From the NCBI RefSeq assembly GCF_004010195.1, contig NC_057718.1, positions 40,938,023 to 41,002,022 on the forward strand: DNA of 64,000 nucleotides, in the 5' to 3' direction. The translations under genes and the position numbers were made by a program. Positions 2,731 through 58,554 of this stretch are shown here, piece by piece (positions within the stretch are counted from its first letter, which is position 1; the number at the start of each line of letters is the position of its first letter). The notes beneath the pieces are model-generated. The model had not been told where the DNA came from. It saw only the letters and a list, made by a program, of their open reading frames with translations, and made no database searches. This DNA is from Chiloscyllium plagiosum (lineage: Eukaryota).

Positions 2731-3260
2731 CAGCCGGTGTTTCAAACTCATGAATCCTCCATCATGAGCCCCATATGTTGGTTCATCTTGTTAGGCCCCC
2801 TTACTGATTTTTCATTATTTTGTTTTATTCTATTTATAACCTTTGGTTTGGAGTTGTGAACTGTGAGATAAATAGTGGACGTAACGTACTTCAGACAACA
2901 GTAAACAATCATATGACAGATAGGTATTCCTGCCACAGCCAGTCATGATGATGGAAAAAAAGAAAAACAAGTGGAAAGCGGAGGATACTTCAACATTCCC
3001 ATCCTCAGTGATATTGGCACACAACAGGAGTACAAAAGACTACTGTGGGGTTTAGCCAAATGTATAACTCAGCCTCCTCTTGATGTTCCTACCATATAAA
3101 AGCCAATCTGAATCAATCTGTATTTTCTTAAAATAGCTGAGTATATTAAAGACATTAGGCCACAATACCATTCTGGCTGCATTGCTGAAGATTTCCATTG
3201 GTCAATATCAGCTTCACCTCTACCAAGCTGCTTCAGTTATAGTTACAATGCTGGTACATT

Positions 3261-3480
3261 AGGAGAAAGTGAGGACTGCAGATGCTGGAGACCAGAGTTG
3301 AAAACTGTGGTGCTGGAAAAGCGCAGCAGGCCAGGCAGCATCCGAGGAGCAGGAGAATCGACGTTTTGGCCATAAGCCCTTCTTCAGGAATTCCTGAAGA
3401 AGGGCTTATGCCCGAAACGTCGATTCTCCTGCTCCTCGGATGCTGCCTGGCCTGCTGCACTTTTCCAGCACCACACTTTT
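3261..3480. mobile_element. Head-to-head palindromic PLE insertion with TSD
   Basis: Inverted arms of ~90-100 bp centred on GGAA|TTCC (3390/3391). Flanked by CAATGCTGGTA at 3246-3256 and 3481-3491. Confidence 0.9.
3391..3425 (+). ncRNA. Minimal type I hammerhead ribozyme motif, intact core
   Basis: CTGAAGA (3394-3400), extra A, stem II GGGC-TTAT-GCCC, GAAAC, GTC (predicted cleavage after 3421). Palindromic ACGT replaces stem III. Stem I is only ~2 bp. Confidence 0.75.
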
Positions 3481-3751
3481 CAATGCTGGTATGTACCTAT
3501 TATGATCCCAACTGTTGGTGATACTGCATAAGTCTGATCTGAGCAGGAAACCTGGCTTGATCGATCATATTTTGATTTTGCAGTTGGCTAATATAGTGGT
3601 CAGGCAATGAAATATATTCATGTGGGGCTGCAGATACTCATTATCAATAGAACACAAGTTTATTATATAAAAAAACAAATAAACTAATTGCGTGTATGTA
3701 TGTGCGTCAGCTAGAAAGATCTTAACACAAAAATCAAAACAAATTGTTAGA

Positions 3752-3880
3752 AACCAAAAGAATGCAGATGCTGTAAATCAGAGACACAACTGCTTTAGGT
3801 CAGAATTGGAACCACTGAGGAAGTTACTCGACCTGAAATGTTTACCCACACCTGCTGAGCTTTTCCAGCAAACAACTTGT
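3752..3880. mobile_element. Decayed inverted PLE terminal fragment
   Basis: Minus-strand tail GAATGCAGATGCTGTAAATCAG, then plus-strand CTGAGGA-AGTTACTCGACCT-GAAATGTT and CCTGCTGAGCTTTTCCAGCA, similar to 9120-9340. Confidence 0.55.
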
Positions 3881-4679
3881 TAACCTTTTCCCCAACACTA
3901 CCTGGTACAAAGTCTCAATGTTAGGGAAGTGTTCTTCCTCTCACTGTTTTTTCTTAACATTTGTACTCAGCTGACTTTTCCCACTTGTTTTTTTCTTGAA
4001 CCATGAAGACAATGTTATGTTTCCTTTTTGGGTCTGTTTGCATGATGTTTCACAATTCTGATAGACTGCTGTTTCTCAGTTTTAACAACTTGAAGATTTC
4101 CATCCAAACTTTCCTGACTTGGAAGCTCCACAGACCAGAAACCACTTCTGAGATGACAGGTCCCCCTAACCTCCCTTGATTCCCTGGCTAGGAATAACTG
4201 TTTTACCTTCTGAACTCAACACCGGGTTCTTCTGAATGCAAACTTAGAATCGTCTGTTCTGAAGTCAGAGGTGGCTTAATGTATTACTCTGTCTGTTATA
4301 ACTGCAACAGTATAATTGTTTACCCATTGACATGTCAGGGGTTTAGCAGGGTGGAATCACATGCAATCACATCATTCTTGGAACTGATAAATTTAGGTCA
4401 TTTTCCAAATGATTTTCTGATCTGTTGAAAAATCATCCTTTACAGAATTGACCAATATCAATCTGCCTCTACTTTGAAATCCTAATCTCAAAATATAACG
4501 TATATATTATACGCTTTTCATCACATACAGCACATAATAGAAAATTTCCCAGTTTTGTCCTCACCTCAAAAAGCAGGGCAAATCCAAGCTAGCCAAAGCC
4601 TCTTGCAATTATCAGCATGGAAGAGATTGTGAACAGTACTATCAAGTGATGCTTAATCATCAATAACTTACTCATTGAT

Positions 4680-4914
4680 ATAACAACAGAAAGTACTAGA
4701 AATACATAACAAGTATGACAGAATCTGTAGAGAGAGAAACAGGTGAACTTTTCAAGTCACGACCTTTCATCAGACCTGAGAAAAAATTAAAATTTCGCCT
4801 TTTAAGTAGGTGAAATGAAGGAGAGTGAAAAAGATGAAATAATGTCCCTTGATTTGCATTGAGATTCATTGGAACATTGCAGTCGGTCAAGGACAGAGAT
4901 GTCAAAGTGCAGCA
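4680..4914 (-). mobile_element. PLE 3' fragment carrying a hammerhead, nested in a LINE
   Basis: Interrupts the LINE between the diverged direct repeats TACTCATTGAT (4669-4679) and TACTCACTTAT (4915-4925). Confidence 0.65.
4740..4778 (-). ncRNA. Minimal type I hammerhead ribozyme motif with 5-bp stem I
   Basis: Minus strand reads CAGGT-CTGATGA-A-AGGTC-GT-GACTT-GAAA-AGT-TC-ACCTG. CAGGU pairs with ACCUG (stem I), AGGUC pairs with GACUU (stem II), and the UC site precedes stem I. Confidence 0.7.
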
Positions 4915-5069: not shown

Positions 5070-6190
5070 GAATTAAAGTCAATGCAATAGATGCTATCTA
5101 TATGTACTTTAAGCAAGTGTTTGAGAACGTACCACAGGAAGACTGGTTAGGAAAATCAAGGACCATTGAATAGGAATTACAGTGGGAACTTCATTAAAAC
5201 ATATTGAATAAACAGAAGCAGATTGTGGTAAATGGTTGGTTTCCCGATCGGAGGATGGGAGACAGTGGTGTTCCCAAAGGGTCAGTACTAAAACCACTGT
5301 TTTCAATATAACTTGGATATTGAAATAAAAATTGATATTTCAAATTTTTCCAATGACACCAAAATTGGAGATATCATAATCTGTGGGATTGATTCCAAAC
5401 AACTGCAAAAAAATATAGATTGGGTGCTGAAGTGGAAAATGGACTTTCGTATAAAGAGGTATGAAATATTAACAATAAAACAAACAACTGCAGATTCTGG
5501 AAATCTGAAACAAAACCAGAAATTGCAGGAGAAACTCAACAGCTCTGGACCAAAATGCTAACACTGCTTTCTCTCCACAGATGCTGCCAGACCTGCTGAT
5601 TTTCTCCAGCAATTTCTGTTTTTGAAGTATGAGATGATACACTGGCAGAAGAGATGGGATGGCCAATATGGATCTAATGGCCTAAAGAGAATGGGAAGGG
5701 ACAGCAAAACCTGGAGGTTCATGCATCTAGATTTTTGAAGGTGGTCAGACATGTTGAGAGAGTAGTAAGAAAAGCATATGTCATCTTTGGCTTCATAAAT
5801 ACCGTACGAGCTATTCCGTGCGAAAACATGGAGGCTATTGTTGATCTTTTTAAAACACTGATTCAGCCACAAGTGGAACACTGTATTCCGTTCTGGTCAC
5901 CACTCTTTAAGAAGGATATGAAGATCTATCAGATGATGCAGATGACCAAAATAGTCCCAGTTATGAGGGATATTATCTAAACGATTAGACTGAAGAAACT
6001 GGAGTTTCTCTCCTTAAAACAAAGAAGATTGAGAGGAGGTCTGATAGCAGTGTACAAGATTAAAGCAAGCTTAAGATTGTGAGAGAAAAGAAATGCTTGT
6101 ATTAGCCGATGGTACAGGACACAAAATTAAAATTTGGGCAAGAGATGTGGTGGTGATGTGAGGATGAGCCTTTTTACACAGTAAATGTAA
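5070..6190 (+). mobile_element. CR1 (HER1-like) LINE RT/3' fragment, decayed
   Basis: ISNFSNDTKIG (YADD-region equivalent FADDTK), LIQPQVEHCIPFWSP and LKKLEFLSLKQRRLRGGLI motifs. Confidence 0.85.
5475..5625. mobile_element. Inverted PLE terminal fragments nested in CR1
   Basis: CAAAACCAGAAATTGCAGGAGAAACTCAAC and its reverse complement GCTGATTTTCTCCAGCAATTTCTGTTTTTG flank GGACCAAAATGCTAAC. Confidence 0.7.
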
Positions 6191-8604: not shown

Positions 8605-9562
8605 TTCACAGCTCATCTCCTCCAAGATGATGGCGAAGTAACAGGGCTGAGCCCAGGCCACATCAGCTCTTGTTCTTTTTTGTATCTCTTCTTCTTTTTA
8701 CTTTAGTTCTTTTCCTTTTTTTCTTCTTTTTTATCTTCGGTTTTCTTTTCTCCAAAGTGGTGGGTGAAGGAAGAGTACACTGGCAGTAGCAACAACAATG
8801 CCGGGCCGAGCAAGCCACAGCTCCATCCCAGCCTGAGGTCGCCTGGCAAGCAAGGAACAGGTCCCGGGTTGACTTGCCCAGCCTGGACCCGCAGGCTGAG
8901 CCGAGGCACCAGGCCTGGGCACCTGAAAGAGTGGAAGCAGCGGCAGCAGCATCTAGAGGAGTGTCGAATGGAAAACAGGTTGTATGTAACCCATGCATCC
9001 CCAGGCCCATGGTTCTAGCTTGGTGGTCGTGGGAATGATGGCAGTGAAAGCCTGCAACCAAGACCCTAGAGCTCATTACAAAAGCTCAGAAAACCATAAT
9101 ACCATCATAGGATCACCAAAATCTAAAAACTGAAAGGATTACAGATGCTATAAATCAAAAAAAAGAACTTGCTGGCAAAGCTCAGCAAGTCTGGCAGCAT
9201 CTGTAAAAAGAAATCAGAGTTAACCCTTCTTCAAAACTCTGCTTTCTCTTCACAGATGCTGCCAGACCTGCTGAGCTTTTCCAACAACTTGTGTTTTTGT
9301 TTTTGATTTACAGCATCTGCAATTCTTTCATTTTTTATGAAAACCCAGGAGCCAGTTTCAGAGACTCCAGCCAATGTCAAGCAACAACTGGAAAGCAGTG
9401 GAGTTTGAACAAAAAGAGAGAAAGATGAACTCCATTACAGAAAAACCTTACATTATATTTAGGTTTCAAGATGACGTTGGAGCATGGTGACTCTTTGCAT
9501 ATAACGTGCAAGAAAACACTTTTCACTGTATTTTTATATACATGTGACAATAAATCTAAATC
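8605..9562 (+). mobile_element. Non-coding LINE-tailed retroposon inserted in CR1
   Basis: Starts near CAAGATGATGGCG, then a pyrimidine tract and a GC-rich body. Ends CACTTTTCACTGTA...TACATGTGACAATAAATCTAAATCT (Rex1/L2-like tail from memory). CR1 resumes at ~9563. Confidence 0.5.
9120..9340. mobile_element. Head-to-head palindromic PLE terminal fragment
   Basis: ACAGATGCTATAAATCAAAA...CTCAGCAAGTCTGGCAGCATCTGT is mirrored by ACAGATGCTGCCAGACCTGCTGAG...TTTTGATTTACAGCATCTGC. Confidence 0.8.
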
Positions 9563-13625: not shown

Positions 13626-14256
13626 TAGTTCTAATTATTTGCCTGCTAATAAATTATGGTTGTGTGATCTGGGTATAGTCTATTACTTGTTTATGTGCAT
13701 TAAATGTTATGTTTTGAACTACTATTGAGCAGCAATGGGAATGAGTTTCATATGAACTGTCCAATATCTTTCACAAATGAGCAAATGAATTGACAGAGCC
13801 AATTACAACACTGATTCAATAGATTGTAATGTTTACGATTTTCAGTACAACTGACACAGGCATTATAACATATCAGAATGCCAACCCCTCCAGAGAATAG
13901 AATCTAGCTGCCCATGTGTGATTTCAAGATGTGACATAGAAATAATGGAGAATGCTGGTAACTTCATTGTTATTTTTACAGATAAATTTAGCCCACTATT
14001 TTGAAATGTTTAACCAAATGAAAAAATGTGTGCCTCAATCGATATCACAGTCCCATGCATTATTTGCAGCATCTGTTTTGCTGTTAAGGTTTGATTCCAT
14101 ATAACCACCACATCAAATATATGAACAGAGGAATATCATCTTCTGGTTATTAGCATGAAACTGCTCTTCTTGATGTTAGAATGCATTTGAATACTTGAGG
14201 GTTTGGATCTTATTGCCAGTATAAACAGTAGCACACACAGTCTTTCCTTATTTTCT

Positions 14257-14500
14257 AGGAGAAAGTGAGGACTGCAGATGCTGGAGATCAGAGTCAAGAG
14301 TGTGATGCTGGAAAAACACAGCAGGTCAGGCAGCATCTGAGGAGCAGGAGAATCGACGTTTCAAGCATAAGCCCTTCATCAGGAATGAGGCTGATAAGCC
14401 TCACTCCTGATGAAGTGCTTATGCCCAAAACGCTGATTCTCCTGTTCCTCGAATGCTGCCTGACCTGCTGTGTTTTTCCAGCTCCACACTCTCGACTCTG
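14257..14500. mobile_element. Head-to-head palindromic PLE insertion
   Basis: Arms mirror about GAGGCT-GATA-AGCCTC (~14387-14402). The left arm has the full terminus AGGAGAAAGTGAGG. The right arm is 3'-truncated at CTCGACTCTG. Confidence 0.9.
14351..14386 (-). ncRNA. Minimal hammerhead ribozyme motif, intact core
   Basis: Minus strand ATTC-CTGATGA-A-GGGC-TTAT-GCTT-GAAAC-GTC-GATT. Stem II is retained through G-U pairs. Confidence 0.65.
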
Positions 14501-16989: not shown

Positions 16990-19780
16990 AGGTGAGAAGC
17001 AGTGAATCTGAATTACTTCAAGATGCTGTTCAGGATTGTAGGAGAACTGACCAGTATAAGAAGTGGCATCACTGTACCAATCAAGAGTGAAGATGGTAGG
17101 CTACTACTGACAGATGAGGAATAGGAGCAAAATGGATGGAACACTTTCAGGAGGTGGTCAATCAACCTATTCTCCACCCAATATTTGAGTTTGATGACCA
17201 CACCAGGCCTCAGCAACTGACCATCAACCTTGGAAAACTGATCAGATCAGAGGTCCATAGAGCCATCTAAGGCCTGAAGAACACTAAAATAGCTGATATC
17301 TTTGCGATACCTGGCATAATTGAAATACCTAGGATCTTTGAGATACTTAGCAAGGTCTTCAGCACTGCACTCCTCGACAAATTGAAAGTAGACATTGGTG
17401 ATAACCTTTGTGGTAAACAGGCAGGTTTCCAGGCTAACAAATCATTCTGTGAGCAGATGGTTACATTCAGCAATGCAGAGTCTACTGTATCACAAACCAC
17501 TGGTTAGCAACTTCAATGATTTCAAGTGGGATTTCAATAGCACTCACCAACAGTCAAATGATACATTGTAAGACAACACAGCATCCCAGAGTGGTATAGT
17601 AACCTTTTCTGAGCTTTATGTATGAAACCAGCTTCTGCATCAAGACAAGCTCAGGCACCACAGATTCCATCAACATCATTACAGGAGTACAGCAAAGTGA
17701 CCTACCCTCCCCATTCCTTTTGTCTTTATTATTGATTTTCTCATGAAGAAGATGATAGTCAATGCAGACTTTGATATCATGTTGCATTGGCACCAGTAGA
17801 CAGCTGTGAAAAGACAAACACAATGATGTCCGAAAAGCAACAAGACCTCCCATTGCCATTGGACAACAAAACTTCAAGAATGCTAATCACATCCTGTGTT
17901 GAAGAAGCGAAATCTCCAGGGAGGATGATGTAGGGATTGATGTCCACACAAAAATTTAGAGGGCAGCATCAGTCTTCTAGCGACCCTACACAGAGAGGGA
18001 ATCCAATACCATCAAAACAGCCATGAAGCTGCAACTTCATGTGTGCATTGTAGTACCAATTGCAATCAATATCAGTGAGGCAAGGACAAGAATGACAAAG
18101 GTGTAACATACTGGGATGTCTTGCAACATGTATTTGGAAAGGCAAGGACTGATTAGGGATAGTCTTCATGGTTTTGTGCATGGGAAATCATGTCTAATGG
18201 ACTAGATTGAATTTTTTGAAGAAGTAACTAAGAGGATTGATGAGGACAGAGCAGTGGACAGAGCAGTGGATCTATATGGACTTCAGTAAGGTGTTCGACA
18301 AGGCTCTTCATGGTAGACTGGTTAGCAAGGTAAGATCTCATGGAATATTGCCATTTGAATACAGAACTGGCTCAAAGGCAGAAGACTGAGGGTAGTGGTG
18401 GAGTGTTGTCTTTCGGACTGGTGGCCTGTGACCAGTGGAATGCCACAAGGATTAGTGCTGCGTCCACTGTTTTTTGGCATTTATATAAATGATTTGGATA
18501 TGAACATAGGAGATATAATAAGTAAGTTTACAGATAACACCAAATTTGGAGGTGTAGTGACCAACAAAAAAGGTTACCTCAGAGTACAATGGGATCTTGA
18601 TGAGATGGATTAATGGGCTGAGATAATTTAGATAAATGTGAGGTGTTACATTTTGGAAAGGCAAATCAAAGCAGTACTTATACATGTAATTAGATTAGAT
18701 TAGATTAGATTACTTAAGGTGCTGGGGTGTGTTGCTGAACAAAGAGACCTTGGAGTGCAGATTCCTGGTTCCTTGAAAGTGGAGTCGCAGGTAGATAGGA
18801 TAGTGAAGAAGATATTTACTTTGCTTTCCTTTATTGGTCAGAGCACTGAGTGTAGGAGTTGGGAGGTCATGTTGCAGCTGTACAGGACATTGGTTAGGCC
18901 ACTGGAATATTGCATGCAATTCTGGTCTCCCTCCTATAGGAAAGATATCGTGAAACTTCAAAGGGTTCAGATTTACCACTGTGAAGCCAGCATTGGAGGA
19001 TTTGAACTAAAGCGAGAGATTGAATAGGCTGGAGCTGTTTTTCCTGGAGCGTTGGAGGTTGAGGAGTAAATTATGAGGTTTATAAAATTATGAGGGGCAT
19101 GGATAGGGTAAATAAACAAGGTCTTTACCCTAGGGTGGGAGAGTCCAGAACAAGAGGGCATAGGTTTACGGTGAGAGTGGAAAAATCTAAAAGGGCAACT
19201 TTTTCACGCAGGGTGTGGTATGTGCATGGAATGAGCTGCAGAGAAAGTGGTGGAGGCTGGTACAATTCAAGTATTTGAAAGGCACCTAGATGGGTATATG
19301 AGTAGGAAGCATTTAGAGGGATATGGGCCAAGTGCTGGCAAATGGAACTAGATTAAGTTAAGATATCTGGTTGGCATGGACGAGTTAGACCAAAGTGTCT
19401 GTTTCTGTGCTGTACATCTCTATGGCAATGACTGTATGTTGCCAACATAAGATCTTAGGTGTCACTTGGAGAGAAAACATGACCAATGAAGAACTGCTAC
19501 ACAGGACTTTTCAGAAGCACCTCAAGGACATTGTGACAGAGGAATGTCTGGTCTGTCAGGACCATTTCATCTCTTGGATGAGCGCTAAAGTGTTGTCGTT
19601 GTATGGACACCACCAGTTTAGAAAAGAAGATGGGTACAGCTAAAAAAGGTGTAGTGCAGTGCATTTAAAGGCAGGACACCACCTGAGCTGGAACAAAAGA
19701 GATTGCAATGGACCCAGGCCAGTGGCAGAGTCTTGTCTATTTTCCTGTATGGCACCAGAGTGGAACTAAAGATAATTAAG
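16990..19780 (+). mobile_element. RTE-clade LINE relic, split by a CR1 insertion
   Basis: PIKSEDGRLLLTDEE..WMEHFQEVVNQP, KQAGFQANKSFCEQMVTF, NFNDFKWDFNSTH and TGVQQSDLPSPFLF. Resumes after 19435 with CCQHKILGVTWRENMTNEELL. Confidence 0.75.
18128..19435 (+). mobile_element. CR1 (HER1-like) LINE, 5'-truncated
   Basis: VTSGMPQGLVLRPLFFGIYINDLD..ISKFTDNTKFGG and LYRTLVRPLEYCMQFWSP, with a 3' UTR ending CTGTACATCTCTATG. Contains a (TAGAT)n run at 18690-18713. Confidence 0.92.
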
Positions 19781-26399: not shown

Positions 26400-28527
26400 A
26401 AGAACCTACTTGAGAGCACGTTATTCTAGACTGGGTGTCGTGCTACGAGAAAAGATTAATTAACAACCTTGTTGTGCAGGGTCAATCGGAAAAAGAGCAA
26501 CCATGAAATGGTAGAGTTAATCATTTAAAATGGAGAGCAAAGAAATTGAATCTTAAACTAATGCCCTGCATCTAAATAAAAGGAACTATAGAGTATGAGG
26601 AAATAATGGATTGGGAAACTTTACTAAAGGGGTTGACAGTGGATAGGCAATGGTTATTAGTTAATAATGTTTGCATGAATTACAATTAGCCATTCCTATC
26701 CAGTGTAAAAGTAAAACAGGAAATATGGCTCAAACATGGTTTACAGAAGAAATTAAAGACAGTATTAAATCCAAAGAGGAGACATATAAAATTGTCAGAA
26801 AAAGCAACAAGCCTGAGGATTTGTAACAGTTTAGAACTCAACAAAGAGGTTGATCAAATGCAGGAAAGTTGAATATGAAAGCAAGTTTGCAAGGATCTTA
26901 GAAATTGATTGTAAAAGCTTCTATAGATAGAAGAAGAGAAAAAAAATGAGTGAAGAAAAATGTAGGTCCTTTACAACCAGAAACACTGGCAATTATAATG
27001 GGAAACAAAGAAATTACAGAAGACTTCAATACATACTGAAAACAACAAATCCTGGAGATCACAGCAATTCAGACAACATCCATGGAGTGAGTCACAGCAC
27101 AAACTGCAGGAATAACATCCCATTTTCACGCACTTTACAGCCTCCTGGATTTAATATTGAGTCCAAAACCTCTAATTTGAGAACCAATTCCCATTTCTTA
27201 CCCTTCTTTTAGCTTGTTATCATGTCCTTCCCTCCCCTATTCCACTCACTATTCTTTTAAGTTTGGCAGGAGACACACCTTTGTTCTGCCGTTCTCACAT
27301 TCTGATTATTTAATCTGAACTATCAACATCTTTTCTCCATCAGCACCCTGCGCTCACTACCCTCACCCCCACCCCTTGCAAACAAAAGCATAAATGCTGT
27401 CCCCTTCACACTTCAGCTCTGATGAAGAGTTGTCTGGATTGAAGTGTTAGCTTGCTGTCTCTCCATGGATGCTGCCTGACCCACTGTGATCTCCAGCATT
27501 TGTTGTTTTCAGTACAGATTTCAGCATCTGCAGTAATTTGTTCCTACAACTTAAATACATATTTCAGTTCTGTCTTCACAAAAGAGGACAGAAATAATTT
27601 CCCAGAAATGTTAGGGAACTAAAGATCTAATGAGTTCAACGAATTGATGAAAGTCAATATTAGTTTGGTTAATGGTATTGTTAATGGGGTTTTAAAATAA
27701 ATTAATGAGGTTAACGGTTGACAAATCACCAGGGCCTGATCATCACCATCCCATAGTACTAAAGCAAGTAACCTTGGAAATACTGGATGCATTGGTGGTC
27801 ATCTTCCAAAATTTTGGAGCAATTCGTACAGATAGAGGATGACAGATGTAACCCCACTATTTAAAAAGAGAGAAGGAAAAAATGAAATACAGATCAGTTA
27901 GCCTAATATCTGTGGTGGGGAATATATTAGACTCTATTATAAAAGATGTGATAACAGAACACTTGGAAAGCATTCCTGGGATTGGGCAAATTCAGCATGG
28001 ATTCATTAAAGGGAAATCATGCTTAACTAGTCTTCCAGAGTTTTTTGAGGATTTAATTAGTAGTTGGATAAGGGACAATCAGTGACTATCATGTATTCGG
28101 GTTTCAAGAAGGCCAAAGATAAGGTCTCACGTAACAGGCAAATAGGCAAAATGAAAACACATTGGATTGGAGGAAATATATTGGCATGGATTGAGAATTG
28201 CTTGACAGGCCAGAAACACAGAGTTGTGAGAACAATGCAAGGAGGCTTCAAGGCGACTTAGATGGGTTGAGTATGTGGACAAACACTTGGTGGATACAGT
28301 ACAATGTGGCTAAATGTGAAATTATACACTGCAGTGTAAAAAACCGAGAGGGGAAATGTATATACAAAAGGATCACCAGCTAGTGAAAGTAGATAGCCAT
28401 GTACAGCAAGTTTTCGGAAGACAAGTGGTATGTTGGCCTTCATTGCAAGAGGATTTGAGTTCAGAAGCAGAGATGTCTTATAATAATTATACAGGGCTTT
28501 GATGAGAGCACTCCTGGAGAACTGTAC
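26400..28527 (+). mobile_element. CR1 LINE (APE end to RT), left part; continues at 34448
   Basis: KYRSVSLISVVGNILDSIIKDVITEHLE..QIQHGFIKGKSCLTSL and QGDLDGLSMW..WIQYNVAKC. Breaks at LENCV. Confidence 0.88.
27035..27548 (+). mobile_element. PLE 3' end (GIY-YIG tail, 3' UTR, decayed hammerhead) with inverted upstream terminal copy and TSD
   Basis: QHKLQE*HPIF..TLQPPGFNIE at ~27095-27165 and AGCT-CTGATGA-A-GAGT..GATT-GAAG-TGTT-AGCT at 27415-27452. Segment ~27035-27087 is the reverse complement of ~27462-27514. ACTTCAATACATA / ACTTAAATACATA flank it. Confidence 0.85.
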
Positions 28528-43257: not shown

Positions 43258-43566
43258 AACTGCTGTCTCACAGTGCCAGGGACTCGAGTTTGATTCCACC
43301 CTCAGGCGACTATGTGGAGTTTGCCCATTCTCCCTACGCCTGCGTGGGTTTCCACAAGGTGCTCCGGTTTCTTCCCGCAGTCTAAAGACGTGCAGATTAG
43401 GTGGGTTGGCCATGTTAAATTGCCTATTGTATCCAGGAATGTGCAGGTTCGGTGGATTAGCCATGGGAAATGCCATGGGGGTTGGTCCGAGTGGGATGCT
43501 ATTCGGAGGGTGAGTGTGGACTGGTTAGGTCGAATAGCCTGCTCCCATACTGTAGGTATTCTATGA
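43258..43566 (+). mobile_element. HE1-type SINE, older copy
   Basis: CTCACAGTGCCAGGGAC..GGCGACTATGTGGAGTTTGC..GCGTGGGTTTCC, with tail CTGTAGGTATTCTATG. Confidence 0.85.
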
Positions 43567-44710
43567 ACTCTGGGAAACAATACAGCCTGCAGTGGAGCAG
43601 ATCAGATGGAAAACATATCCCTTTCACCTGCATTCAGTAGTTTAAATGTTCAGCAGTCACTTTGACAACTATTCAGAAGAATTGAATATGTAAATATAGG
43701 GATTGGCTGGCAAACGGGTGGAGAACGTTAGGATGCCAAATGAATGAGAGGTTGGGTGGCATATGGGTCCAAGTTGTAGAATGCCAGGTGGGTTGGGGTT
43801 TAGGCTGCCAGACAGGTGAGGGGTCAGCATGCCAGCTATGTCAATTAGTTTTTAGAGTAAGTCTAGGTGTGTATTTGCAGTATGTGTCAGGTCCAGTGAG
43901 GTTGGGCCAGGATGGGATACTGGACCAGGTGGGTGGGTTTGGCATGAGTAGAGAAATGTATAGTTCAGTGGACAGGTTAGGGGAAGGGGAGAGGAGGGAG
44001 TTGAACAAGGAGATCATATTGGTCTGGTGGGATCAGATTGGGTTGACAGGTTGTGGTCAAAGTGATTGTCAGATCGTATAGAGTTGGGGCTGTGGGAGTG
44101 CGACTGGGGACACATCCGAAGGTGGAATGTGTGGTGCAGGAGGAGAATAGTGTTAAATTGAGGTTTCGGTTTAATAGTTATAGAGTCATAGAGATGTACA
44201 GCACCCTAACAGATCCTTTGGTCCAACTTGTCCATGCCGACCAGATATCCCAACCCAATCTAGTCCCACCTGCCAGCACCTGGCCCATATCTGTCCAAAC
44301 CCTTCCTATTCATATACCCATCCAGATGCTTTTAAATGTTGCAATTGTACTAGCCTCCACCACTTCCTCTGGCAGCTCATTCCATACACGTACCACCCTC
44401 TGCGTGAAAATGTTGTCCCTTGGGTCTCTTTTATATCTTTCCCTTCTCATCTAAACCTATGCCCTCTCATTCTGGACTCACTCACCCGAGGGAAAAGACC
44501 TTGTCTATTTACCCTATCCATGCCCCTCATGACCTCTACAAGGTCACTCCTCAGCCTCTGAGGCTCCAGGGAAAACAGCCCTAGCCGATTCAACCACTCC
44601 CTATAGCTCAAAACTTCCAAATCTTTTCTAAACCCTTTCAAGTTTCACAACATCTTTCTGATAGGAAGGAGACCAGAACTGCATGCAACATTCCAAATGT
44701 GGCTTAACCA

Positions 44711-45056
44711 ATTAGATTAGATTAGATTAGATTAGATTAGATTAGATTAGATTAGATTAGACTACTTACAGTGTGGAAACAGGCCCTTCGGCCCCACAAG
44801 TCCACACCGACCCGCCGAAGCGTAACCCACCCATACCCCTACATTTACCCCTTTACCTAACACTACGGGCAATTTAGCATGGCCAATTCACCTGACTTGC
44901 ACATCTTTGGACTGTGGGAGGAAACCGGAGCCCCCGGAGGAAACCCACGCAGACACGGGGAGAACGTGCAAACTCCACACAGTCAGTCGCCTGAGTCGGG
45001 AATTGAACCCGGGTCTCTGGCGCTGCGAGGCAGCAGTGCTAACCACTGTGCCACCG
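44711..45056 (-). mobile_element. Young HE1-type SINE nested in CR1
   Basis: (ATTAG)10 tail at 44711-44760 and a CpG-rich body. Host CR1 reads ACCAAT|...|AATGTCCTG (short AAT duplication). Confidence 0.95.
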
Positions 45057-45974
45057 AATGTCCTGTAAAGCTGCAACATGACCTCCCAACTCCTGTACTC
45101 AACACTCTGACCAATAAAGGAAAGCATGCCAAATGTCTTCTTCATTATCCTATCTATCAGCGACTATACTTTCAAGGAGCTATGAACCTGCACTCCATAG
45201 TCTCTTTGTTCAGCAACACTCCCTAGGACCTTACCATTAAGTGTATAAGTCATGCTAAGATTTGCTTTCCTAAAATGCAGCACCTCACATTTATCTAAAT
45301 TAAATTCCATCTGCCACTCCCTAGCCCATTGGCCCATCTGATCAAGGTCCCGTAGTACTCTGAGGTAACCTTCTTCGCTGTCCACTACACCTCCAATTTT
45401 AATGTCAGCTGCAAACTTACTAACTGTACCTCTTAAGCTCACATCCAAATCATTTGTATTAATGACTAAAAGTAATGGACCCAGCACCGATCCTTGTGGC
45501 ATTCCATTGGCCACAGGCCTCCAGTCTGAAAAACAACCCTCCACAACCACCACCCTGTCTTCTACCTTTGAGCCAGTTCTGTATGCAAATGGATAGTTCT
45601 CCCTGTATTCCATGAAATCTAACCTTGCTAATCAGTCTCCCATGGGGAACCTTTTTGAATGCCTTGCTGAAGTCCATATAGATCACATCTACTACTCTGC
45701 CCTCATCAATCCTCTTTATTACTTCCTCAAAAACTCAATCAAGTTTGAGAACATGATTTCCCATGTTCAAAGTCATGTTGACTATCTGTAATAAGTCCTT
45801 GCCTTTCCAAATGCATGTACATCCTGTTCCTCAGGATTCCCTCCAACAACTTGTCCACCACCTACATCAGGCTCACTGGTCTATAGCTCCCTGGTTTGTC
45901 CTTACCAACTTTCTTAAGTAGTAGCCACCCTCCAGTCTTCCGGCACCTCAACTGTGATTATTGATGATACAAAT

Positions 45975-46048: not shown

Positions 46049-49000
46049 AAAATATCTCAGCAAGACACCCAGCAATCACTTCCCTAGCTTCCCACAGAGT
46101 TCTAGGGTATACCTGATCAAGTCATGGGGATTTATACACCTTTACGCATTTCAAGATAGCCAGTATTTCCTCCTGTGTAATATGGACATTATTGAAGATG
46201 TCACCATCTATTTCCCTACATTCTATATCTTCCAAGTCCTTTTCCACAGTAAACAATGATGCATAATACTTGTATTTATATCTCCCCATCTCTTGCGGCT
46301 CCACACAAAGGCCACCTTGCTGAACTTTGAGGGGCCCTATTCTCTCCCTAGTTACCCTTTTGTCCTTAATGTATTTGTAAAAGCCCTTCATTAAAAACCT
46401 CCTTAACTATCTGACCAAACCTATCTCATGTCCCTGATTTTCCTCTTCAGTATACTTCTACTGCCTTTATACTCTTCTAAGGATTCACTCGATCTATCCT
46501 GGTGATTCCTTCTGTTTCTTAACCAAACCCTCAATTTCATTAGTCATCCAGCACTCCCCATACCTACCAGCCTTTTCTTTCACCCTGACAGGAATATACT
46601 GTCTCTGTACTCTCGTTATCTCATTTCTGAAGGCTTCCCATTTTCCAGCCATCCCTTTACCTGCGAACATCTGCCCCCAATCAGCTTTTGAAAGTTCTTG
46701 CCTAATACTGTCAAAATTGGCCTTCCTCCAATTTAGAACTTCAACTTTTAGATCTGGACTATCTTTTTTTCATCACTATTTTAAAACAAATAGAATTATG
46801 GTCGCTGGCCCCAACGTGCTCCCCCACTGACACCTCAATCACCTGCCCTGCCTTATTTACCAAGGGTAGGTCAAGTTCTGCATCCTCTCTAGTCGGTACA
46901 TCCACATACTGAATCAGAAAATTTTCTTGTATGAGCTTAACAAATTCCTCTCCATCTAAACTTTTAACACTATGGCAGTCCCAGTGTATGTTTGGAAAGT
47001 TAAATCCCCTACCAAATCCAGCCTATTACTCTTACTGTGATGTCTTTACAAATTTGTTTCTCAATTTCCCGCTGACTACTAGGGGGTCTATAATCCAATT
47101 CTAGTAAGGTGATCATCCCTTTATTTCCCAGTTCCACCCAAATAACTTCCCTGGATGTATTTCCAGGAAGACACTCACTCAGCACAGCTGTAATGCTATC
47201 CCTTATCAAAAACACCACTCCCCCTCCTCTCTTGCTTCCCTCTCTATCCTTCCTGTAGCATTTATATCCTGGAACTTTATGTGGAATGGTCCTCACCTGT
47301 AAGAAACTGTTTCTCTCCACAGATACTGTCTGATATCATGCACCTTTATTGCGTTTTAGGTTTTTAATTTAAGATTTCTGGCAATGACAGTATTTTGCAT
47401 TTGTCTCAGAACATCAAGAGTGGCATGGTGGCTCTGCAGTTAGCACTACTGCCTCACAGTGCCAGGGACCAGGGTCAGTTATTCAGGAACTAGAGCAAAT
47501 TTTTAATCCTTTAATGTTTCCTCGGTATTTATGAAACTTAACTGAGTCAGAACCCTCTGAAATTGTTGAATGCAAGGGACCTTTCTGCAGAGCTTTGGAT
47601 GCAGACAGAATTTCCACTGAGAAAATTTGAATTTCCTTGGTAATGCCATAGAGTCAGCTGCTTCAGGATTTCAGCATGGCCCTAATGGGCAACTCAAACC
47701 TAACCCGCAGAAATTACTATTTTGCTGTTTGAATTTTCTGAGCCAATGAGATTAACACCTTCTAAAAATGATGTACTTCTCTGAGCTTCTATGTAATAAT
47801 TTTTCAGGGTTTTTGCTGCTGGCAAATGTGGGTTAGAGACTCCAGACAACAAGGCTGTGCTGGAAATGGAATCTTACAAAATAACACTCTAAATGTCACA
47901 TAAATGTCACTCTAGAATGGTGTTTGCCAAAGTCATAATACCACCTCAAACTAATTGCAGATGATGGAGATAATTTTACGACTATGGGTTGCTGATGGAA
48001 AACCTCACCTGCCGCAAACATGGTCACAAAATTATTCCTGCTGTGTCGCCTTCCATGTACACTGAGTGTTAGACATTGGGAATGCATCTCATTATAGTCA
48101 AATGGTTAGACCACTTGTGTTTTCTGTTTTTAAAGGAAAAGGCTGAGCACAACCACAGGCCCACTTAACATATGCCACTTGAGCCACAAGGAGGAAACAG
48201 TTCTTGAAATGTTGGTGGTGGAGGCCACATATGATGTGAAGAAGGACAAGTTGATGGCTTAGTGCCAACCCAGCAAAACCTCTAAATAATTTCCTCCTTC
48301 AGGCACAAACACCCAGTGGAGGGAGAGCACTCAATTGCCAGCTGATATGGTATTTTTATCTTGCTTTCTCCACATCCTCTACTGCTGGTTTCAGAATAGG
48401 TAGGAAGAAATAACCATTTATTTTATATAAATAAATAACCATTTCCAGGCTCTAAATATCCTGGGACATCATCCCTGTCAGAAACCAGTGATAGCTCATA
48501 TTGCAGTTTCAGTTTTTCCATCACTAATTGGTTCAATAATTAAATATTGCTTTTACCAAAATACATTTCTCTTCAAATACATTTCTTTCATATGCTCAGA
48601 TGCAATAAACTGTAGTCATGCAATGGTCTTATCATTCAGGATTAGCACCAGAACCTGGTATTCTTTTTATGCCTGTCTTCTCTATAGAATGATCCTAATT
48701 CTTTGATGGATCTGTCAGAGTTATTGATGTATAGAGTGACTGATTATCATAGCTAAGTAGAAACCTAGCTGAGCTGTTTTGATAGCCAGAAACATCTTTC
48801 ACAAATTGTGCAAAAAGAAATGCAAGGCAAGATTCACTAGTCATATTCATTAAAACAGATTTCTTTATTTAAAATAGTGAAAATTAGGAGAAATGCCTCC
48901 ATCCTTTTGGTTGTCTAACTCAACTAAAATGTAAACCAATCAAATCTCTCTGTTCTGATATGACTACATACTGAAAAGAACAGGGTAACATATTTTTCAA

Positions 49001-50879: not shown

Positions 50880-52075
50880 GTGATAGACAATAGACAATAG
50901 GTGCAGGAGTAGGTCATTCTGCCCTTCGAGCCAGCACCACCATTCATTATGATCATGGCTGATCATCCTCAATCAGTATCCTGTTCCTGCCTTATCCCCA
51001 TAACCCTTGATTCCATTATCCTTAAGAGCTCTATCCAACTCTTTCTTGAAAGTATCCAGAGACTTGGCCTCCACAGCCTTCTGGGGCAGAGCATTCCATA
51101 CACCCACCACTCTCTGGGTGAAGAAGTTTCTCCTCAACTATGTTAAACTCTATCTTCTGGTTCGGGACTCACCCATCAGCAGAAACATGCTTCCTGCCTC
51201 CAGAGTGTCCAATCCTTTAATAATCTTATACATCTCAATCAAATCCCCTCTCAGCCTTCTAAACCCAAGTGTACACAAGCCCAGTTGCTCCAATCTTTCA
51301 GCGTAAGATAGTCCCGCCATTCCGGGAATTGATCTCATGAACCTACGCTGCACTCCCTCAAAAGCCAGAATGTCTTTCCTCAAATTTGGAGACCAAAACT
51401 GTGCACAATATTCCAGGTGCGGTCTCACCAGGGCCCTGTGCAGCTGCAGAAGGACCTCTTTGATTCTATACTGAATTCCTCTTGTTATGAAGGCCAGCAT
51501 GCTATTAGCTTTCTTCGCTGCCTGCTGTACCTGCATGCTTGCTTTCATTGACTGATGTACAAGAACATCTAGATCTCGTAGTACTGCCTCTTTACCTAAC
51601 TTGATTCCATTTAGTTAGTAATCTTCCTTCCTGTTCTTGCCACCAAAGTGGATAACCACACATTTATCCACATTAAATTGCATCTGCCACATATCCGTCC
51701 ACTCACCTAGCCTGTCCAGGTCACCCTGTATTCTCCTAACATCCTCCTCACATTTCACCCTGCCACCCAGCTTTGTGTCATCAGCAAATTTGCTAATATT
51801 ACTTTTAACACCTTCATCTATATCATTAATGTACATTGTAAAAAGCTGCGGTCCCAACACTGATCCCTGCGGCACACCATTGGTCACCGCCTGCCATTCC
51901 GAAAGGGAGCCATTTATCACTACTCTTTGTTGCCTGTCAGCCAACTAACTTTCAATCCATGTCAGTATTTTGCCCTTAATACTATGTGCCCTAAGTTTGC
52001 TCACTAACCTCCTATGTGAGACTTTATCAAAGGCTTTCTGAAAGTCCAGGTATACTACGTCCACTGGATCTCCCT
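50880..52075 (-). mobile_element. CR1 LINE RT and 3' end, young subfamily
   Basis: ORFs [36 protein letters not shown] and RALVRPHLEYCAQFWSP. Tail TAGACAATAGACAATAG. Confidence 0.95.
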
Positions 52076-57778: not shown

Positions 57779-57887
57779 CTCCATATATACCTATGAGAAA
57801 GTGAGGACTGCAGATACTGGAGATCAGAGCTGAAAAATTTGTTGCTGGAAAAGTGCAGCAGGGCAGGCAGCATCCAAGGAGAAGGAG

Positions 57888-57923
57888 AATCGACGTTTCG
57901 GGCATAAGCTCTTCTTCAGGAAT
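57888..57923 (-). ncRNA. Minimal hammerhead ribozyme motif, intact core
   Basis: Minus strand ATTC-CTGAAGA-A-GAGC-TTAT-GCCC-GAAAC-GTC-GATT, with one A-C mismatch in stem II. Confidence 0.65.
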
Positions 57924-58325
57924 GAGGAAGGTATGCCAAGCAGGCTAAGATAAAAGGTAGGGAGGAGGGACTTGGGGGAGGGGCATTAGGAATGCGATAG
58001 GTGGAAGGAGGTTAAGGTGAAGGTGATAGGCTGGAGAGGGGCTGGGGGCAGAGAGATCGGGAAGATGATTGCAGGTCAAGAAGGCGGTGCTGAGTCCGTG
58101 GGTTGGGACTGAGATAAGGTGGGGGGAGGGGAAATGAGGAAGCTGGAGAAATCTCTCAGCACCGCCTTCTTGACCTGCAATCTTCTTCCCGACCTCTCCG
58201 CCCCCACCCCCTCTCCGGCCTATCACCCTCACTTTAACCTCCTTCCACCTATCGCATTCCCAACACCCCTCACCCAAGTCCCTCCTCCCTACCTTTTATC
58301 TTAGCCTGCTTGGCATACCATCCTC

Positions 58326-58361
58326 ATTCCTGAAGAAGAGCTTATGCCCGAAACGTCGATT
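58326..58361 (+). ncRNA. Minimal hammerhead ribozyme motif, intact core
   Basis: ATTC-CTGAAGA(58330-58336)-A-GAGC-TTAT-GCCC-GAAAC-GTC(58355-58357)-GATT, identical to the opposite arm. Confidence 0.65.
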
Positions 58362-58554
58362 CTCCTGCTCCTTGGATGCTGCCTGACTGCTGCGCTTTTC
58401 CAGCAACACATTTTTCAGCTCCATATATACCTATCTTTTGCCTAGCCACGGATTCTATCTGGCAACTCAATAATGGATTGTCCATGGACTGCTGGAGAAA
58501 GGTGTGATATGTCATATATAATTTTCACAAGTTCAGACCTTAACATTTTTAAAA

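Follow-up and report, generated by a model that had tools for sequence, protein, structure and literature searches.

A spacerless hammerhead palindrome in Chiloscyllium plagiosum is a single head-to-head insertion of the short end of a Penelope-like element

Results

The palindrome and its boundaries

The locus analyzed here lies at 3246-3494 of the window, by which we mean the whole 64,000-nucleotide stretch of Chiloscyllium plagiosum DNA, and its features are collected in Table 1. The palindrome is real. An inverted-repeat search of the window returned arms at 3291-3390 and 3391-3490 that are 94% complementary with 0 nt between them, which places the symmetry axis at 3390/3391 with no spacer. 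The outermost 7 bp of the nominal 100-bp arm are a chance extension into the target-site duplication (TSD), and homology between the arms is limited to 93 nt (3298-3390 versus 3391-3483) with four differences (3370/3411, 3367/3414, 3322/3459 and 3305/3476), two of which are CpG transitions. The original prediction of arms of about 100 bp meeting without a spacer is therefore correct for the spacer but not for the length, since 93 nt are homologous and the left arm carries some 38 nt more, while its view that both arms copy one segment is borne out. Its outer limits, 3246 and 3494, coincide with the edges of the 14-bp TSD. The left arm is more like the right arm (95.7%) than it is like the eight other family arms in the window (79-93%, aligned core).

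Table 1. Features of the palindrome and of its repeat family in the window
Feature	Position	Strand	Remarks
TSD, left copy (14 bp)	3246..3259	+	11 bp exact, 3 bp explained by one CpG decay
3' tail, about 38 nt, left arm only	3260..3297	-	its end is the putative outer priming site
Left arm, short Penelope-like terminal-repeat copy	3298..3390	sense on -	95.7% identity to right arm
Minimal hammerhead core, decayed	3360..3387	-	G12>A at 3367, stem II mismatch at 3370
Centre, GGAATTCC	3387..3394	.	two ATTCC 5' ends overlapping by self-complementary AT at 3390-3391
Right arm, inverted, tail-less	3391..3483	+	ends at the putative inner priming site, +89 from C3
Minimal type I hammerhead core	3394..3421	+	predicted cut 3421/3422; read against the min-HHR features in PMC4209133
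TSD, right copy	3481..3494	+	first 3 bases, CAA, match the element too (junction microhomology)
Focal family, 7 insertions with 10 arms	solos 1243, 13495, 52317, 54254; inverted pairs 3260, 14256, 57792		within the window

The insertion as a whole consists of two end pieces only, 224 bp without an open reading frame (ORF). Each arm matches a long copy of the family exactly up to position -4, the A four bases before the hammerhead core, and not beyond. Since both arms end at this A, the central GGAATTCC can be read as two ATTCC ends that overlap by AT; the 14-mer spanning the axis occurs once in the window relative to 0.04 occurrences expected by chance. The mismatch between the TSD copies is a single CpG that has decayed on opposite strands in the two copies, and about 3/1500 random pairs score as well (p = 0.002).

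Contigs from public sequencing runs recover the boundaries. In run X2, from the same species, contigs pass from the left flank into the element (2800-3283) and from the right arm into the right flank (3461-4000). Contigs of run X9, from organism B, contain both junctions with flanks about 5% diverged (26/492 and 24/541 letters), and organism B has a further change at the TSD CpG site (3493); contigs of run X7 show the right junction only. The presence of these junctions in X2 and X9 indicates that the inverted orientation is independent of the assembly and predates the split from organism B. Because the 14-bp TSD bounds the palindrome, the left arm alone is tailed and both junctions recur independently, we conclude that the palindrome is one insertion. 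It corresponds to the ribozyme-bearing short end of a very abundant Penelope-like element (PLE).

Public contigs support both junctions of the palindrome, but none of the listed contigs bridges the centre when 31 letters are required on each side of it. A 71-nt X7 contig crosses the axis without a gap (3347-3417; 44 + 27 letters) and has 7 other letters, being probably another copy, and an X9 contig covers 3371-3449; these two contigs suggest that such centres exist, the X7 contig pointing to other copies with the same centre. The four sites at which the arms differ, two of them CpG decay, also argue against a read fold-back artefact. Divergence amounts to 2.2% per arm (95% interval 0.6-5.5) relative to 2.4% per lineage to organism B, and judged from these substitutions the insertion would agree with an age near that split. 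The focal insertion is old and has since decayed neutrally.

Two hammerhead cores beside the axis

The plus-strand core contains CUGAAGA, a bulged A after A9, a 4-bp stem II, GAAA, a palindromic ACGU and C17, and by eye the conserved core, the bulge 9/10.1, the G10.1-C11.1 pair and the palindromic 15.2-16.2 are all present. Its helix I has 3/4 bp (3390-3393 with 3422-3425) and a U-U mismatch, with a pairing probability of about 0; in a lone arm, fold prediction gives the stem II pairs a probability of 0.95-0.99. As originally described, the cores begin 3 nt from the axis on either side, at 3394 (plus) and 3387 (minus), and the minus copy is without G12, to which we can add the broken stem II pair. 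G12>A occurs in 3/10 family arms in the window and the CpG is kept in only 4/10, indicating that the loss of G12 reflects the usual decay of CpG sites. Both focal arms retain an intact ACGU.

A hammerhead core, variously decayed, is found in all 10 family arms in the window. A search of Rfam gave no hammerhead match to the focal cores, neither at the gathering score nor at E values up to 10. Across related subfamilies in the window the paired positions of helix I covary by eye, and at 4773, 27419, 58330 and 63132 the helix I and stem II sequences differ among four subfamilies with pairing mostly kept. A frame of 38 codons runs from an ATG in loop II to the end of the tail, a geometry like that of the Anolis PLE protein PAc discussed below, with a length compatible with chance.

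The predicted hairpin of the palindrome has a free energy of -199.7 kcal/mol relative to -80.4 +/- 5.0 for shuffled sequences (z = -23.8; 0/200 shuffles equal it). The expectation that a read-through transcript would sequester the ribozyme is upheld in silico, with a stem II probability of 0.00 and a cost of 18 kcal/mol for keeping stem II. Read-through RNA of the locus would thus fold, in this model, as a hairpin that silences both ribozymes.

Ends of the family in the window

The focal repeat is very abundant, as indicated by the 93,152 X2 contigs that align to the window, a depth that does not equal copy number. Inverted pairs make up 3/7 of the family insertions in the window and single arms 4/7. 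When compared with the long copy, 6/10 arms, belonging to 5/7 insertions, have 5' ends at -4/-5 from the core, and 0/10 arms end at the ribozyme cut site. Under a uniform-truncation model this pile-up has p below 1e-5, a value that overstates the case and serves as a guide only. The focal axis therefore lies beside the ribozyme because most family copies begin there. Mapping of the axes across the window, another check that came with the original prediction, shows that they are not fixed at the ribozyme, but neither are they unrelated to it, given that 5' ends pile up at this place.

The 3' ends fall into two groups. Four of the tailed arms are well preserved, and these have their ends at +126/+127 from C3; the tail-less arms end at +89 to +93 (+89 in the focal right arm and in 52317; +91 and +93 in the other pairs). 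Each of the three pairs combines a tailed arm with a tail-less one, and the ends of the two are offset by 33-38 nt. The solo copy 52317 is tail-less, has its own 13-bp TSD and ends at the same +89 as the focal right arm, which indicates that the inner end behaves as a reverse transcription (RT) start site and thereby favors priming over resolution of a fold-back. TSDs of 11-16 bp are clear in 5/7 family insertions (p 0.001-0.013). The TSD is displaced at insertion 1243, and none was recovered at 14256 or at three pairs of family C.

The two other pairs have different centres. In the 14256-14500 pair a 4-nt spacer is closed by 2 bp, the centre is 12 nt upstream of the cores and the arms are only about 86% alike. 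The arms of the long pair at 57779-58434 (57792-58421 within a 16-bp TSD) extend to -234 and -175 and leave a single-copy centre of about 60 nt some 200 nt upstream; the left arm appears to reach what we take to be the end of an ORF.

Both focal arms share a rare base, G at 3450 and C at 3331, where family depth in X2 is 95% A (671441/707297). Likewise, a stem II change common to the two arms of the 57792 pair is absent from the other eight arms. Barring later conversion, these shared bases point to one RNA or one source locus for each pair. The original proposal of two template copies brought together as a dimer gains no support from this pattern, as the rare base common to both arms points to one template or source locus and not to two random RNAs.

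Joints between arms can also be read from contigs, with the bias that the reference holds no sequence upstream of 3390 and longer arms are clipped there. Among the 15 joints listed of 579, 12 join a short tailed arm (ending at 3284-3359) to an arm starting at 3387-3399, and the listed joints suggest a continuum down to L1-like non-overlapping inversions. A separate class of X2 and X7 contigs joins 3359 to 3260 head to tail, from the predicted cut-site boundary to the tail end with 4 letters between, and is possibly a tandem built from cleaved RNA. Patterns of the family had no match in viral contigs, metagenomes or prokaryote genomes; a relaxed 20-mer hit 25 metagenome loci, which we attribute to chance as 0/25 extend beyond about the seed.

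Assignment to Penelope-like elements

PLE insertions generally have an inverted 5'-truncated copy at the 5' end and a tail of 30-40 bp at one end (PMC8557442), the tail being reported also in PMC3846280 and PMC11167929. The focal family shows these traits of endonuclease-bearing (EN+) PLEs: an inverted 5'-truncated copy adjoins the 5' end, a tail of this kind is found on one side only (33-38 nt, 3/3 pairs), the TSD is short and a hammerhead motif lies in the terminal repeat. A Pfam search of the 149 longest window frames found no PLE-type RT/GIY-YIG, the copies being too short to carry an ORF, and matched only LINE-type RVT_1, Exo_endo_phos pieces and one weak DUF705. The 96-codon frame upstream in the long copy had 0 matches among 168 candidates, an absence that is weak evidence, and the window holds no full-length copy of the family. 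As no RT/GIY-YIG ORF is tied to the family, its PLE membership rests on the four architectural features.

Other classes were considered and rejected. A non-LTR retrozyme is rejected as all copies in the window are solo or head-to-head, with no head-to-tail tandem. A MITE or DNA transposon is rejected by the tail on one side, by centres that differ among the three pairs, by the 4/7 single-arm copies and by the variable TSD of 11-16 bp. A microRNA precursor is rejected as well, the best Rfam miRNA matches being to generic hairpins (47 versus 99 bits gathering).

Related subfamilies and other repeats in the window

Several related insertions are present in the window. The palindrome at 9124-9337 belongs to a related subfamily, has both arms tailed and has lost part of stem II; inspection by eye puts the end of one arm at -4 and the start of the other at the predicted cut site, the two overlapping by the 4 nt of helix I, which makes it the only case observed that points to the cleavage site. 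Only 270 bp from the focal palindrome, a related-subfamily insertion at 3757-3880 consists of an inverted tail-only piece and a longer arm that are nearly non-overlapping, as in an L1-like inversion. A third subfamily at 27023-27561 pairs a 57-nt tail-less inverted arm with a tailed arm of about 460 nt inside a 13-bp TSD whose copies differ at one position; its -4 A is preceded, at a distance of about 26 nt, by a TATA-like run, and its 5' part contains a decayed frame that we presume to resemble the end of a PLE ORF. The related-subfamily pair at 5474-5624 has a short tailed arm and a tail-less arm starting inside stem II. In 4/4 related subfamilies in the window, TC directly precedes the -4 A, a sequence that we take to resemble an initiator.

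The window also contains two tandem 112-nt copies with 99% identity at 230-453, which either were duplicated recently or reflect an overlap in the assembly. Fragments of LINE-type RT (RVT_1) and endonuclease lie at 45167-45734, 46762-47022 and 51618-51944, with weaker RVT_1 matches at 18359 and 27852. SINE-like copies at 43259-43563 and 44710-45037 are in opposite orientation about 1.2 kb apart, and one of them adjoins an (ATTAG)n run.

RNA evidence

RNA run X21, a poly(A) single-cell run of which about 2% was read and which is poorly suited to this purpose, gives no coverage of the unique flanking sequence at 2800-3250 and 3497-3537. Reads on the element derive from other copies, and their A>G/T>C sites number 5/6 relative to 3-7/4-9 in the DNA runs. 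In the same portion of this run no position stood out as a start shared by many RNA molecules. In Drosophila, inverted Penelope copies feed double-stranded RNA (dsRNA) pathways (PMC3681739), and by analogy hairpins of the focal type could do so too.

Discussion

A mechanism for the focal insertion

The reading that we favor, and hold to be somewhat probable, is two-site priming of both nicked strands on uncleaved RNA from one source, with run-off at a common 5' end and a join through AT. According to this model the PLE endonuclease would make staggered nicks 11-14 bp apart, as shown by the TSD, and each freed 3' end would prime RT on the ribozyme-bearing end of the RNA, a step suggested by the geometry and known in vitro for another PLE. 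The tailed arm would begin at the outer start site and the tail-less arm at the inner site about 38 nt upstream. The template would be uncleaved RNA, the whole ribozyme being kept in both arms, and would come from one source, the shared rare base suggesting either that a single molecule served as template for both arms or that two transcripts came from the same locus. Both cDNAs would then stop at the 5' end preferred by the family, the -4 A at which the ends pile up and which may be a transcription start with an initiator-like TC/ATTC. Finally, the cDNA 3' ends, both in AT, may pair by two bases and be filled in to give the spacerless palindrome.

The original prediction that both ends of the cut target primed cDNA gains from the inner end of solo 52317 and from PAc, a purified Anolis PLE protein that cleaves the two strands of the target and extends both, initiating at two adjacent internal sites that bound the tail, and that is predicted to be a protein dimer (PMC11167929). 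The model also has weak points: the sample is seven insertions from one window, an overlap of 2 bp is a weak joint, fold-back or later gene conversion would produce the shared rare base just as readily, and the centres at 9124-9337 and 14256 fit fold-back as well as double priming.

A more general reading is possible, and we offer it with less confidence than the model itself. Transcription may start at the first base of helix I, in which case internally primed cDNAs would run off after a short and fixed length, and twin priming with microhomology may be the origin of head-to-head pLTRs in PLEs. As part of this same tentative reading, the microhomology might be the terminal AT in the focal insertion and helix I itself in a related copy.

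Weighing other explanations

A single cDNA or antisense template could instead have turned near the ribozyme and been copied back, with the endonuclease resolving the second end at the inner site. This fold-back route explains the shared rare base without an extra assumption, self-priming has been proposed for the junction palindromes of PLEs (PMC3846280), the tail has been ascribed to endonuclease resolution (PMC8557442), and the centres at 9124-9337 and 14256-14500 are readable as short fold-back stems. We nevertheless regard it as unlikely, since a primed hairpin requires a loop and a pre-existing stem, so that a centre with zero spacer is hard to prime. Upstream of ATTCC the long copy has CCTC in place of GGA, so that a zero-spacer fold-back needs three specific untemplated bases; if the turn were made through helix I, the 31-nt core would remain between the arms as a spacer, and the inner end arises in solo 52317 without any fold-back. 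Very unlikely, in our estimate, is the proposal that two RNAs joined as a hammerhead dimer through their palindromic ACGU were both reverse-transcribed, with the axis set at the ribozyme. A dimeric mode of action has been proposed for minimal PLE hammerheads, which show low cleavage in dimeric constructs (PMC4209133), and the ACGU is intact in both arms, but the self-duplex is matched by 79% of 200 shuffles and the predicted dimer makes no use of ACGU. An active dimer should moreover cut at 3421/3422, where no arm ends, solo copies reach the same -4/-5 position without a partner, and the two remaining pairs have their centres 12 nt and about 175-234 nt upstream. Mutant ribozymes leave PAc insertion in vitro unchanged, which proceeds equally well with dead ribozymes so that cleavage is not needed (PMC11167929), and Naiads, which lack canonical hammerheads, still form inverted copies (PMC8557442). 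The original suggestion that the RNA arrives as a hammerhead dimer is thus not supported, given self-pairing no better than that of shuffles, the missing ends at the cut site and the pairs centred elsewhere.

The two remaining explanations concern the centre. Long, near-perfect inverted repeats are unstable, and a longer inverted repeat of the 57792-58421 type, a long pair of the same family within the window, could have lost its centre between the ATTCC ends while gene conversion kept the arms alike. For this to happen a symmetric deletion must hit exactly where four solo copies also end; in addition, the arm divergence matches the age of the organism B split, which means that strong homogenisation is not needed, and we consider the route quite improbable. 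It is highly improbable that the inverted insertion is real and its spacerless centre an artefact of assembly collapse. PLE inverted structures do trouble assemblies (PMC8557442) and the centre is unbridged under the 31-letter rule, yet the four arm differences with their two CpG transitions speak against a collapse, and the axis-crossing X7 and X9 contigs suggest that such centres exist.

Significance and relation to known systems

The focal structure is ordinary for PLEs. It is of use as a clean observation bearing on how PLE tandem and inverted arrangements arise, an origin called 'still undefined' in PMC8557442. If the 5' pile does mark the RNA start and the pairs do arise by twin priming, there would be a sequence-level mechanism for PLE inverted repeats, and an abundant family such as this one would allow the models to be separated by counting junctions. 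In the mostly open-access literature searched, we found no description of twin priming in PLEs or of a 5'-end pile at helix I. A spacerless centre formed from two run-off ends joined by AT is likewise absent from the literature found, and is plausible.

In L1 twin priming, cDNA synthesis is primed from each of the two nicked target strands, and the resulting non-overlapping pieces are joined by microhomology. The focal insertion is similar in priming from both strands and in its microhomology, but its arms copy the same segment whereas L1 pieces do not overlap. Short-tail inversions of the family (3757-3880 and the contig joints) look intermediate towards L1.

The min-HHRs of PMC4209133 resemble the focal cores in the core itself, the bulge, the ACGU-type palindrome, the lack of helix III and their occurrence mostly as solo truncated copies. 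The focal pair differs in that its cores are 6 nt apart, with a 4-bp stem II and a U-U mismatch in helix I; in S. mansoni, pairs of minimal hammerheads on opposite strands are 100-700 bp apart (PMC4209133). In D. virilis, where the ribozyme likewise lies close to the RNA start, the start site is 46 nt before an intron whose end maps to the 5' end of helix I (PMC4209133, PMC2377424). Animal retrozymes (bioRxiv 10.64898/2026.07.22.740005) are, like the focal insertion, non-coding, hammerhead-bearing and PLE-derived, with an example in a chondrichthyan, but they form head-to-tail arrays whereas the focal copy is a dispersed head-to-head pair with a TSD. The PAc system shares with the focal insertion two priming sites that bound a tail downstream of the ribozyme, an uncleaved template and use of both strands; in the part of PMC11167929 available, inverted copies are not explained and 5' ends are not mapped.

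EN+ PLE insertions (PMC8557442, PMC3846280, PMC2377424) are like the focal one in head-to-head inversion, a one-sided tail and junction palindromes. Penelopes of A. vaga have inverted pLTR flanks with palindromes at the head-to-head junction (PMC3846280), and in D. virilis the form met most often has large inverted terminal repeats that vary in size (PMC2377424). Short TSDs are a further shared trait, of 8-10 bp in A. vaga PLEs and 11-16 bp in the focal family; relative to the EN+ PLE descriptions available the focal insertion is distinct in having two end pieces only, no spacer and 5' ends at one base. The head-to-head arrangement itself, which the original prediction did not relate to PLEs, is an already described PLE trait.
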